Source of the DNA: a virus
Lineage: Duplodnaviria; Heunggongvirae; Uroviricota; Caudoviricetes
IMG/VR virus record: IMGVR_UViG_2698536401_000003
Length of the DNA stretch: 33,079 nucleotides
Strand: one strand, 5' to 3'
In this document: one piece after another, positions 16,383-17,777 of the stretch
Layout of the letters: every line of letters begins with the position of its first letter
Numbering within the stretch: position 1 is the stretch's first letter
Translations under genes and position numbers: made by a program
The notes under the pieces: generated by a model
What the model was told of the DNA's origin: nothing
Databases searched by the model: none
The model's input: the letters and a program-made list of their open reading frames with translations, nothing else

Positions 16383-17429
16383 TTAAAAATCTTTCGTTAT
16401 TTCTCTGACCGTCTGATTAAAACGCTCCTCTTCCAGTTCCACGCCAATCGCCCTGCGTCCCAGCGACAGTGCTGCTTTTATTGTCGACCCCGACCCCATA
16501 AAAAAATCTGCGACCAAATCGCCTGGACGGCTGCTGGCAGTAATTATCTGACGCAACATATCCGCCGGTTTTTCACAGGGATGTTTACCCGGATAATACT
16601 GCACGGGCTTGTGCGTCCAGACATCCGTATAAGGAACGACAGCCGATACGGAAAAATAACGCCGCAGTGATTTGTATTCCTCCAGCAGGCTGGCATATTG
16701 CCGGTTCAGTTCGCTGTATGTGCTGATCAGCTGGTGGTGTGGCTGCTCCAGTTCACCGCGCTGGTGTTTTTCTGCCGCAACACGCGCAAACAACGCCTGC
16801 AGTTTACTGTAATCGGCCTCATTCGGTAACTGCCACTGACTGGTACCAAACCAGTGCGAAGCCATGTTTTTCTTTCCGGTGGCTTCTGCTATCTGTTTTG
16901 ACGTTATCCCCAGTGATTCACGCGCATCACGAAAGTAAGCAATCAGCGGGGCCATTACGTGCTGCTTAAGCTCGCGCCCTTTTGCCGCATAGCCGTCATT
17001 TTTTGGCTGATATGGCCCCTGATAATGTTCGGCAAACAGAATGCGCTCTGTTGCCGGGAAATACGCCCGCAGGCTTTCCTTGTTGCACCCGTTCCAGCGT
17101 CCGGACGGCTTCGCCCAGATAATGTGGTTCAGCACATTAAAGCGTTCACGCATCATGATTTCGATATCAGATGCCAGGCAATGACCACAGAACAGGTAGA
17201 GACTTCCGGCAGGTTTCAGTACCCGCCAGAACTGCGCCAGACACTGAGCCAGCCATTTCAGGTAATCATCGTCCCCCTTCCACTGGTTATCCCAGCCCTC
17301 GGGCTTCACTTTAAAGTATGGCGGGTCTGTGACTATAAGATCGACAGAGTTTTCCGGTAAGGTCCGGATAAATTCCAGGCAATCAGCGTTGATTAACTCA
17401 CAACTGGATATTTTTACAGCATTAGCCAT
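16383..17429 (-). CDS. Orphan DNA methyltransferase (beta-class N6-adenine/N4-cytosine MTase)
   Basis: N-terminal catalytic motif IV (LIVTDPPYF) and C-terminal AdoMet-binding motif I (DLVADFFMGSGSTIKAA), the order typical of beta-class amino-MTases. No adjacent restriction endonuclease gene. Confidence 0.85.
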   Translation of the reverse strand: MANAVKISSCELINADCLEFIRTLPENSVDLIVTDPPYFKVKPEGWDNQWKGDDDYLKWLAQCLAQFWRVLKPAGSLYLFCGHCLASDIEIMMRERFNVLNHIIWAKPSGRWNGCNKESLRAYFPATERILFAEHYQGPYQPKNDGYAAKGRELKQHVMAPLIAYFRDARESLGITSKQIAEATGKKNMASHWFGTSQWQLPNEADYSKLQALFARVAAEKHQRGELEQPHHQLISTYSELNRQYASLLEEYKSLRRYFSVSAVVPYTDVWTHKPVQYYPGKHPCEKPADMLRQIITASSRPGDLVADFFMGSGSTIKAALSLGRRAIGVELEEERFNQTVREITKDF

Positions 17430-17565
17430 GGATCAATAAGCACTTCTCTGATAGGCTCATACCGCTTTTGCGCAAAGCAGATGGGCCTGAGGTTTGCTTG
17501 TGATCCCAACGCATGAGCAGATGGCTGGCAGGTGCCGCTAACACCCACCAGCCGCCCATTACCAC

Positions 17566-17593
17566 AAATTAAAAAGCCTTCACTGCGGAAGGC
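17566..17593 (-). terminator. Rho-independent terminator overlapping the 3' end of the small upstream gene
   Basis: Minus strand: GCCTTCC-gcagt-GAAGGC stem followed by TTTTTAATTTG. Confidence 0.5.
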
Positions 17594-17777
17594 GTCTGTA
17601 ACAACCGAACTGATAATCTGCCAGACCCGCCATAACAAGCTGGGTCAGTATTAACTGGCAGCGTTCGCGTGAAAGGTAAGTATTCTGCGCAATTTCCCCG
17701 ACGGTCGCCGGTTCGGTGACGCTTAATTCATTAAACACCACTCTGGCGGTTTCGGTCATATCCTGCTGTTTTAGCAT
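17580..17777 (-). CDS. Hypothetical small protein (65 aa), possible winged-helix DNA-binding fold
   Basis: ORF 17580..17870 trimmed to the ATG at 17777 (MLKQQDMTETARVV...) with a purine-rich SD; flanked by its own terminator. Confidence 0.45.
   Translation of the reverse strand: MLKQQDMTETARVVFNELSVTEPATVGEIAQNTYLSRERCQLILTQLVMAGLADYQFGCYRRLPQ

Follow-up and report, generated by a model that had tools for sequence, protein, structure and literature searches.

We analysed a stretch of 33,079 nucleotides (nt) of viral DNA, IMG/VR record IMGVR_UViG_2698536401_000003, hereafter the window, and describe here a DNA methylase gene at 16383-17429 together with the leader, the terminators and the small gene that precede it. 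The window is a lambdoid Escherichia coli (E. coli) prophage with all its late genes on the minus strand, and every feature of the window given below is on that strand. Our reading, which we regard as likely, is that the gene encodes a late anti-restriction methylase that depends on the antiterminator Q, is silenced by terminators, and has its translation set by a structured 5' leader of its mRNA. According to its sequence, the enzyme is a member of the M.EcoGII family.

In the proposed mechanism, transcription that reaches the cassette from upstream in a lysogen, either from a constitutive late promoter or from the promoter of a CPBP gene, would stop at a first terminator (t1), with a second one (t2) as a backup. 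After induction only the Q-modified polymerase would pass t1 and t2, and the methylase would then be made along with the lysis and structural proteins. It would hypermethylate the replicating phage DNA before packaging, and the progeny would thereby escape restriction systems whose sites contain adenine. The leader would impose a low or conditional translation on a dangerous enzyme. Since such an enzyme harms the cell when its expression is unrestrained, the gene is apparently kept silent in lysogens. It lies in a prophage, and its silence there is what t1, t2 and the position downstream of Q would predict.

Enzymes of the M.EcoGII type can methylate most of the adenines in a genome, yet up to seven copies are present per E. 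coli chromosome, and how they are tolerated is the question. Published work records only that the genes are silent in lysogens. Two terminators, a folded leader without a Shine-Dalgarno sequence and a winged-helix companion together provide a concrete and testable account. The methylase itself adds little, as it is a common copy of a family that has already been biochemically characterised and is sold as a reagent.

A methylase of the M.EcoGII family behind predicted terminators

The open reading frame (ORF) at 16383-17429 codes for 348 amino acids. It matches the Pfam profile PF01555 (N6_N4_Mtase) with 151.7 bits, against a cutoff of 26.7, over residues 29-340, and the PADLOC model MTase_II with 507 bits. 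From the translation and the alignment with M.EcoGII, the catalytic motif IV, DPPY, was located at residues 35-38 (17316-17327), and motif I, FxGxG, which binds S-adenosylmethionine (SAM) and reads FMGSG here, at residues 310-314 (16488-16502). DPPY followed after about 270 residues by FMGSG is the order found in beta-class N6/N4 amino-methyltransferases, in agreement with the class proposed in an earlier note on this DNA. Solved beta-class enzymes (RsrI, CcrM, MboIIA and others) align to the methylase in two stretches that flank an inserted domain. By homology to residues 160-237 of M.EcoGII this insertion contains the target-recognition domain (TRD), at 16719-16952, with about 82% identity as counted on the alignment. 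In M.EcoGII the domain is a four-helix bundle (PMC11551740).

Over its full length, TRD included, the methylase shares 296 of 345 residues (86%) with M.EcoGII, for which we used the sequence given in the SUPREM paper (PMC11551740, Table S1). Its identity to the methylase of phage 1720a-02, an enzyme that has been named as very similar to M.EcoGII (PMC5778455), is 87%. M.EcoGII is a prophage enzyme of 349 amino acids that methylates adenine in any context (PMC5778455), and reconstructed ancestors and relatives of its clade are still non-specific (PMC11551740). Because of the 86% identity over the full length, we expect the target here to be adenine in any context as well, most likely at N6.

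For such a non-specific target no cognate endonuclease is expected, and none was found. The larger ORFs of the window contain no endonuclease match with Pfam or PADLOC. For comparison we used the RefSeq annotation of a prophage in E. coli strain R1 that is 99% identical, and it does not list one either. The earlier note had likewise seen no endonuclease partner in the window. The neighbours are instead a winged-helix gene, a CPBP protease, Q and a tRNA, so the locus lacks the nearby endonuclease of a Type II restriction-modification system.

M.EcoGII is not expressed in the lysogen and slows growth when it is expressed (PMC5778455; review PMC12707154), and genes of its family give no methylation signal in lysogens (PMC5778455). 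It is thought to shield phage DNA from host restriction (PMC5778455). The anti-restriction role that the earlier note had suggested for the present gene is supported by analogy with this closest characterised relative and by the location in a prophage. The exact protein sequence is present on 32 NCBI contigs. A search with the region 16383-17800 of the window found the cassette in 2155 of 5426 complete E. coli genomes (about 40%), with at most seven copies per genome.

Two predicted terminators precede the methylase. The first, t1, lies upstream of the small gene at 17901-17923 (ACCCGC-CTCTGA-GCGGGT followed by TTTTT; stem 17923-17906, T-run to 17901). It was identified from the alignment and the centroid fold, and its equivalent in the locus L004 was picked up by the terminator scan. 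The second, t2, at 17571-17593 (GCCTTC-CGCAGT-GAAGGC, GCCTTCCGCAGTGAAGGC, followed by TTTTT), was found by the same scan and encloses the stop codon of the small gene. Both predicted sites have the form of an intrinsic, Rho-independent terminator, with a G+C-rich hairpin followed by a U-run on the strand of the gene. Of 51 loci, 42 have a hairpin similar to t2 about 20 nt ahead of the leader, and 28 of these 42 hairpins are followed by at least five T. The earlier note had given each of the two genes a terminator of its own. For the small gene this is correct, with the hairpin and T-run at 17593-17571, but not for the methylase, as the terminator scan found no hairpin with a U-run between its stop (16383) and the gene for tRNA-Gly (16165-16093).

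The late operon starts with the gene of the antiterminator Q (19035-19409), which matches PF06530 (Phage_antitermQ) with 172 bits; the annotation of the R1 prophage agrees. In lambdoid phages the late promoter PR' is constitutive, and its transcription is terminated in lysogens until Q acts (PMC7547250). As t1 and t2 sit in a late operon with Q antitermination, their most likely effect is to silence the genes in the lysogen, not to create independent units.

In all related phages t1 is kept together with about 60 nt on its 5' side. These 60 nt (17924-17985, containing TTAAGAGTGGTTAYTTCRCC) are nearly invariant across phages with differing upstream genes. Together with t1, they give a weak match to the isrK model of Rfam (21.8 bits, below the threshold of 50). 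The segment could be the short PR'-to-terminator transcript of this phage type, comparable to the 6S RNA of lambda or to StxS.

A conserved, folded leader before the methylase start codon

The spacer between the small gene and the methylase is 150 nt long (17430-17579), as given in the earlier note, which had described it as an intergenic region. We find that it is not ordinary intergenic DNA but a conserved structured element; t1 is likewise an addition to that note. The leader element is about 140 nt long and is located at 17430-17570, with a covariance-model match at 17422-17570. It was delimited with nhmmer, by covariation and with the covariance model. In E. coli, Klebsiella and Salmonella the spacer has a length of 149-150 nt and a mean column identity of 88%.

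To determine its distribution we used 80 genome loci, all retrieved by their methylase. In about 50 of these, across the Enterobacterales, nhmmer finds the leader directly before the ATG of the methylase. The leader-positive loci include some without the small gene, and also loci from Proteus and Morganella. The leader has a mean pairwise identity of 0.82, compared with 0.70 for the coding sequence of the methylase and 0.46 for its third codon positions, a pattern that indicates strong purifying selection on a non-coding sequence.

Among viral contigs, a 21-nt word of the leader was found at least 121 times. A methylase start lies 100-160 nt downstream in 114 cases, three others are cut by contig ends, and the remaining four are deletion junctions. 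Thus, among the matches listed, all 114 viral instances with a complete leader and enough room downstream precede a methylase. The four junctions (L108, L146, L172 and L191) keep the small gene, t2 and the first leader helix, P1, while the rest of the leader and the methylase are exchanged for AT-rich DNA with a good -10 box (GGGGCTATAATT) and a different gene.

The leader of the window folds with a z-score of -3.7. Its most widely kept part is P1, a long hairpin with the segments P1a, P1b and P1c at 17513-17559 (AUGGGCGGCUGGUGGGUG...CACCUGCCAGCC...GCUCAU). It is followed by a second domain at 17430-17506, closed by P2 (P2a and P2b) and containing P3 and P4. P2 reaches the start codon: its 3' strand, UGAUCC (17435-17430), is immediately followed by the AUG at 17429. 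Indels in the loops gave a poor RNAalifold consensus on the MAFFT alignment, and the helices were set by hand and then tested.

We base the claim of covariation mainly on a MAFFT alignment of 51 leaders that was not fitted to the structure, since a fitted alignment leans towards the structure. In the unfitted alignment 93.5% of the cells are paired, compared with 31-42% when the partners are slid by one to three columns. Changes on both sides are seen in eleven pairs, where shuffled alignments have 4.7 +/- 1.5 (0 of 500 reached this value). In the alignment fitted with the covariance model the values are 95.1% paired cells and 12 pairs with changes on both sides. Built from the unfitted alignment, this model finds a single strong match in each locus, with 101-175 bits. 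In every case the match lies on the sense strand and ends at the ATG, and antisense matches reach 16-21 bits. The helices contain 125 G.U cells and 41 A.C cells, although two positions supply most of the G.U. This excess favours an RNA made from the strand of the methylase over a palindrome in the DNA.

Several other explanations of the conserved spacer were considered and rejected. A palindrome or operator at the DNA level is disfavoured by the G.U/A.C asymmetry and by the changes that preserve pairing. A dispersed repeat, such as a repetitive extragenic palindrome, does not agree with the single strong covariance-model match per locus in 621 kb, always at the methylase. The spacer also contains an invariant AUG at 17558, inside P1, that opens an ORF of 45 codons (17422-17558). 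Its stop overlaps the methylase start (AUGGCUAA) and it ends 5 nt past the methylase AUG, an arrangement that resembles translational coupling. We rejected it as a conserved coding region: the ORF has seven codons in most genera (MGGWWVL) and 18 in Proteus, and even within the E. coli phages the frame is shifted by indels of one base.

No model of Rfam 15 (4227 models) matches the leader at E <= 1 in a scan of 4.2 kb, and for stretches of 211-221 nt from two species only chance-level microRNA and small nucleolar RNA matches were obtained at E <= 10. A literature search for RNA motifs near N6_N4_Mtase genes returned nothing; its coverage was incomplete, and an earlier description is possible. 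We therefore treat the leader as a new candidate cis-regulatory RNA motif of the Enterobacterales and of Shiga toxin (Stx) phages. It is also of interest in practice, for the expression and control of M.EcoGII-type enzymes.

According to an anti-Shine-Dalgarno duplex calculation, the long-leader loci have no Shine-Dalgarno sequence before the AUG of the methylase. The best duplex within 20 nt of the AUG reaches only -2.4 kcal/mol and is 14 nt away. The small gene, in comparison, obtains -5.3 kcal/mol, and short-leader variants from Xenorhabdus that do have a Shine-Dalgarno sequence obtain -5.8. For positions -13 to -1 of the methylase start, pairing is predicted to predominate (mean unpaired probability 0.31). 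Because there is no Shine-Dalgarno sequence and the last helix of the leader ends at the AUG, translation of the methylase is probably low or conditional. The leader thus probably throttles the translation of a toxic methylase.

In Xenorhabdus and Photorhabdus the leader is shorter, about 100 nt, and retains a covarying hairpin similar to P1. In the region about 60 nt before the methylase start, five Xenorhabdus loci (L074-L078) do not have the P2-P4 domain and carry instead a canonical Shine-Dalgarno sequence, GAGAGGA. This suggests that the long P2-P4 domain and an ordinary ribosome-binding site are alternative solutions.

The companion protein and the alternative readings

The small gene at 17580-17777 codes for a protein of 65 amino acids (phrog_331, E = 1e-37). 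It starts with an ATG behind a good ribosome-binding site (AAGGAA), and the RefSeq call in the 99%-identical prophage is the same. A longer version with a GTG start was ruled out by a 10-nt deletion in a homologous phage. The AlphaFold2 model, with a pLDDT (predicted local distance difference test) value of 91.4, is a winged helix with the order H1-strand-H2-H3-beta-hairpin wing. Its neighbours in the PDB are generic winged helices at E about 1e-3: MarR/OhrR, IclR, the N-terminal domains of O-methyltransferases and the RNA-binding winged helices of SelB. The protein was called DNA-binding-like in the earlier note. The fold of the model (pLDDT 91) agrees with this, but the match to TrmB (PF01978), a name used for the protein in some database records, has 18.0 bits and is under the Pfam cutoff of 25.6, so only the generic fold is supported and not membership of that family.

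No deeper homology was found for the small protein, as HMMER gave only a narrow family and the fold search only generic winged helices. The family has 334 proteins at 90% clustering, all from Enterobacterales, and an exhaustive HMMER search of 1.8 billion proteins gave 61 family representatives. The protein is not of the Xre type seen in controller (C) proteins, and it contains no zinc-binding Cys/His pattern. The stretch from the small gene to the methylase contains neither a promoter-like site nor a repeated operator.

In about 58 of the 76 genome loci with enough flanking sequence, the small gene is directly 5' of the methylase. Among them are loci of Proteus, Morganella, Xenorhabdus and Photorhabdus, in which methylase identity falls to 60-68%. 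In viral contigs the same arrangement is found in 115 of 121 instances, among the matches listed. In 16 loci unrelated genes replace the small gene, the methylase being intact and the leader full-scoring, with 156-172 bits in 11 Enterobacteriaceae and 119 and 126 bits in two Morganella loci, similar to relatives that have the gene. The small protein is a frequent and not an obligatory companion of the methylase, and probably ancestral. Two of the loci without the winged-helix gene (L020 and L027, at about 2558-2797) have a Cys-rich protein of 79 amino acids 5' of the leader. Its pattern, CxxC...CxxC...CxxC, is zinc-ribbon-like and recalls the Com protein of phage Mu.

Several observations weigh against the proposed role of the terminators and the leader. 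Many equivalents of t2 have interrupted U-runs, and the Proteus and Morganella loci have no clear t2. In phage 1720a-02 the consensus scan gave no sigma-70-like site from Q to t1, and PR' was not located. The covariation of the leader is modest because its sequence is so conserved, and its structure was partly derived from the same sequences that were used to test it. A structured leader without a Shine-Dalgarno sequence could also enhance translation instead of repressing it. RNAalifold proposes an alternative pairing, UGGGC with GCCCA, for which no covariation test is possible as both segments are invariant. For the enzyme, the 86% identity was counted against an M.EcoGII sequence machine-read from a PDF, likely with a few reading errors. 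Further, this allele has Cys at residue 84, a position at which Arg is found in 121 of 124 distinct homologues and Cys in none, so the allele may be less active.

The alternative pairing would be in competition with P1a and P3, and it could be the sign of a switch or a pseudoknot. It is possible, though we hold it only tentatively, that the leader is an undescribed class of cis-regulatory RNA dedicated to M.EcoGII-type genes and a true switch, triggered by the winged-helix protein or by a small ligand and using the UGGGC/GCCCA pairing. The leader may equally act as a static brake, as a processing site or as an enhancer.

For the protein as the trigger there is a precedent in phage Mu. There, com-mom contains a toxic DNA-modification gene that is silent in the lysogen, and Com, a small RNA-binding protein encoded upstream, unlocks the translation of mom. 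In the same way, the 65-residue protein could bind the leader RNA and open the helix at the start region, so that the methylase is translated only once its partner has accumulated. This refinement of the proposed mechanism is unlikely, though it has a number of observations in its favour. The small gene is directly 5' of the leader and methylase in most loci, out to Proteus, Xenorhabdus and Photorhabdus, and it has a good ribosome-binding site where the methylase has none. Winged helices can bind RNA hairpins, and complexes of SelB with the selenocysteine insertion sequence (SECIS) are among the structural neighbours. The gene order and the RNA structure at the start of the modification gene, where P2 is backed by compensatory changes and reaches the AUG, are also those of such a system. 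However, the 16 loci that keep the methylase and a full-scoring leader without the small gene do not fit, unless other prophages supply the protein in trans. Com is a zinc finger and the protein here a winged helix, which limits the likeness to a functional analogy.

The substitution at residue 84 (codon 17178-17180) raises the question of whether this is a decaying or attenuated gene in a defective prophage, in which R84C disables the enzyme and the cassette is now idle. The rarity of Cys84 speaks for this, and attenuating mutations are plausible in a toxic family; the closest prophage, which has Arg at this position, carries an IS66-family insertion in its early region. Nevertheless, the frame is intact, all catalytic and SAM-binding motifs are present, and the identical protein is found on the 32 contigs mentioned above. 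Arg84 is also not conserved beyond the family and aligns to Gln in the solved relative 9c3u. We consider an idle gene improbable. D61A and T4A are two other unusual changes in this methylase.

The earlier note had concluded from the terminator and the spacer that the two genes are regulated separately, and had looked to the spacer for a promoter. In its full form, this would be a spacer promoter that drives the methylase and a small protein that acts as a DNA-binding, controller-like regulator, possibly with an epigenetic role in the lysogen. The winged-helix fold and the sub-threshold TrmB match of the small protein are compatible with such a regulator, a terminator does separate the genes, and near-palindromes of the leader such as GCTTTAGCGCTAAAGC could be operators. 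A consensus scan, however, found no sigma-70-like site at 17430-17600, and the leader alignment has no conserved -10/-35 pattern, so that a promoter in the spacer was rejected. What the spacer holds instead is a conserved RNA fold that extends to the start codon. Its pairing is kept while the sequence changes, with G.U about three times as frequent as A.C, which fits an RNA and not a DNA operator, and the leader is conserved even where the small gene is absent. The lack of a methylation signal from M.EcoGII family genes in lysogens (PMC5778455) also counts against an epigenetic role. Taken together, separate units are slightly less probable still than an idle gene.

Last, and least probable, the leader could be a riboswitch of a new class, for SAM, S-adenosylhomocysteine (SAH) or another metabolite, that toggles between the nested fold and the UGGGC/GCCCA fold: the unusual conservation of its primary sequence covers unpaired segments and helices alike, the two invariant 5-nt segments can pair in competition with P1a and P3, P1a has an invariant 5' strand and a variable 3' strand as expected for two alternative partners, and the product of the downstream gene uses SAM, but there is no Rfam riboswitch match, the alternative pairing never varies and hence shows no covariation, and the short-leader Xenorhabdus variants do without the P2-P4 domain. 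To our knowledge, riboswitches ahead of DNA methylases have not been described.

Prophage context and known systems

The gene order is rusA (19396-19773, from the ORF and the annotation), Q, a variable gene, t1, the small gene, t2, the leader, the methylase, tRNA-Gly and the holins. The cassette occupies the moron slot that separates Q from the lysis genes and that in Stx phages holds tRNAs and stx. The best sigma-70-like site 3' of Q is TTGCCA-17-GATAAT at 18914-18942, with 10 of 12 matches in the consensus scan. Judged from its sequence it is a candidate for the late promoter PR' or for the promoter of the following gene. This gene (18064-18888) codes for a CPBP/Rce1-like membrane protease (PF02517, 71 bits).

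The site between Q and t1 is variable. It is occupied by the CPBP protease here, by a GIY-YIG nuclease in phiP27 and by two opposite-strand ORFs in Stx2a_1447. In 1720a-02 it is empty, and t1 begins about 75 nt past the stop codon of Q. The genes of this site, such as the CPBP protease, may be expressed in the lysogen and act in defence. The pair of small gene and methylase is found at 80-91% DNA identity in phiP27 (L23/L24), in Stx2a, Stx2c and Stx2d phages and in 1720a-02. Across E. coli, Klebsiella and Salmonella the same gene order occurs behind Q proteins of three families; in the Klebsiella and Salmonella prophages these Q proteins belong to PF06323 and DUF1133/PF06530. Because the order recurs behind Q proteins of other families, the cassette is a conserved unit and its surroundings are not.

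Downstream of the methylase, the next gene is tRNA-Gly(UCC) at 16093-16165 (ARAGORN; Rfam tRNA, 51.6 bits), a phage-borne tRNA that occupies the place of ileZ, argN and argO of the Stx phages. Between it and the first holin gene the terminator scan found three terminator-like hairpins in a row (15639-15807), which overlap sub-threshold Rfam matches to small RNAs (mmgR, Trp leader). In O157 prophages, small RNAs have been reported at the moron site 3' of PR' (PMC4104026), and the hairpins may correspond to these. Beyond 15639 follow the holins, the endolysin, the terminase, and then the head and tail genes. The early region contains an ORF with a Fic/DOC domain (21228-21722, 46 bits) and a YdaT-toxin-like ORF (26667-27092). 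In the early region of the closest relative, the prophage of strain R1, there is hokD in addition to the IS66-family insertion.

We also considered M.EcoPA8orf6770P/PNB-2 (Gong et al., PMC10810198), a two-subunit methyltransferase of Stx phages, and rejected it as a relative. It belongs to a different family (DPPW, MT-A70-like), lies at another locus and is not homologous. That enzyme prefers 16S rRNA, has a small second subunit, and is encoded at the gp5 position, where it is disrupted by IS629 in phiPA2 (PMC10810198). The papers on the late region of Stx phages (the pR' comparison, PMC6266700; anti-sRNA; StxS, PMC7547250) make no mention of the present methylase, its leader, the terminators or the companion.

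Among characterised systems, the closest are M.EcoGII and its twin M.EcoGI from E. coli O104:H4 C227-11 (Murray et al. 2018, PMC5778455). The methylase is like them in the motif order DPPY-TRD-FxGxG and in its length (348 and 349 amino acids), and like M.EcoGII in its location in a prophage and in the missing endonuclease partner. It differs from M.EcoGII by about 49 substitutions, R84C included. The portions of the M.EcoGII publications that were available to us do not describe a leader, flanking terminators or a companion gene.

The same cassette, t1-small gene-t2-leader-methylase, is located between Q and the tRNA genes in phiP27 (Stx2e; methylase L24 and small ORF L23), and in the Stx2a, Stx2c and Stx2d phages and 1720a-02, where the pair is annotated as DNA methylase and hypothetical protein. 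In these phages it is followed by ileZ/argN/argO and stx, whereas this prophage has tRNA-Gly and continues straight to the holins. In Stx phages the cassette shares the late transcript with the Shiga toxin genes.

The likeness to com-mom of phage Mu consists of a toxic late modification function, a gene of about 65 codons directly upstream, a predicted RNA structure at the start of the gene and several layers of silencing. The proteins, however, are unrelated: Mom falls outside this class of SAM methylases, and Com has a zinc finger where the protein here has a winged-helix fold. Transcription here also appears to depend on Q antitermination, in contrast to the C protein and Dam in Mu. A review pairs Mom with M.EcoGII (PMC12707154). 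Finally, Q antitermination at PR'/tR' in lambda and in 933W/Sp5 (PMC7547250) is alike in that the genes between Q and the lysis cassette lie behind intrinsic terminators. The lambdoid tR' is a single terminator, whereas here two terminators bracket the small gene.

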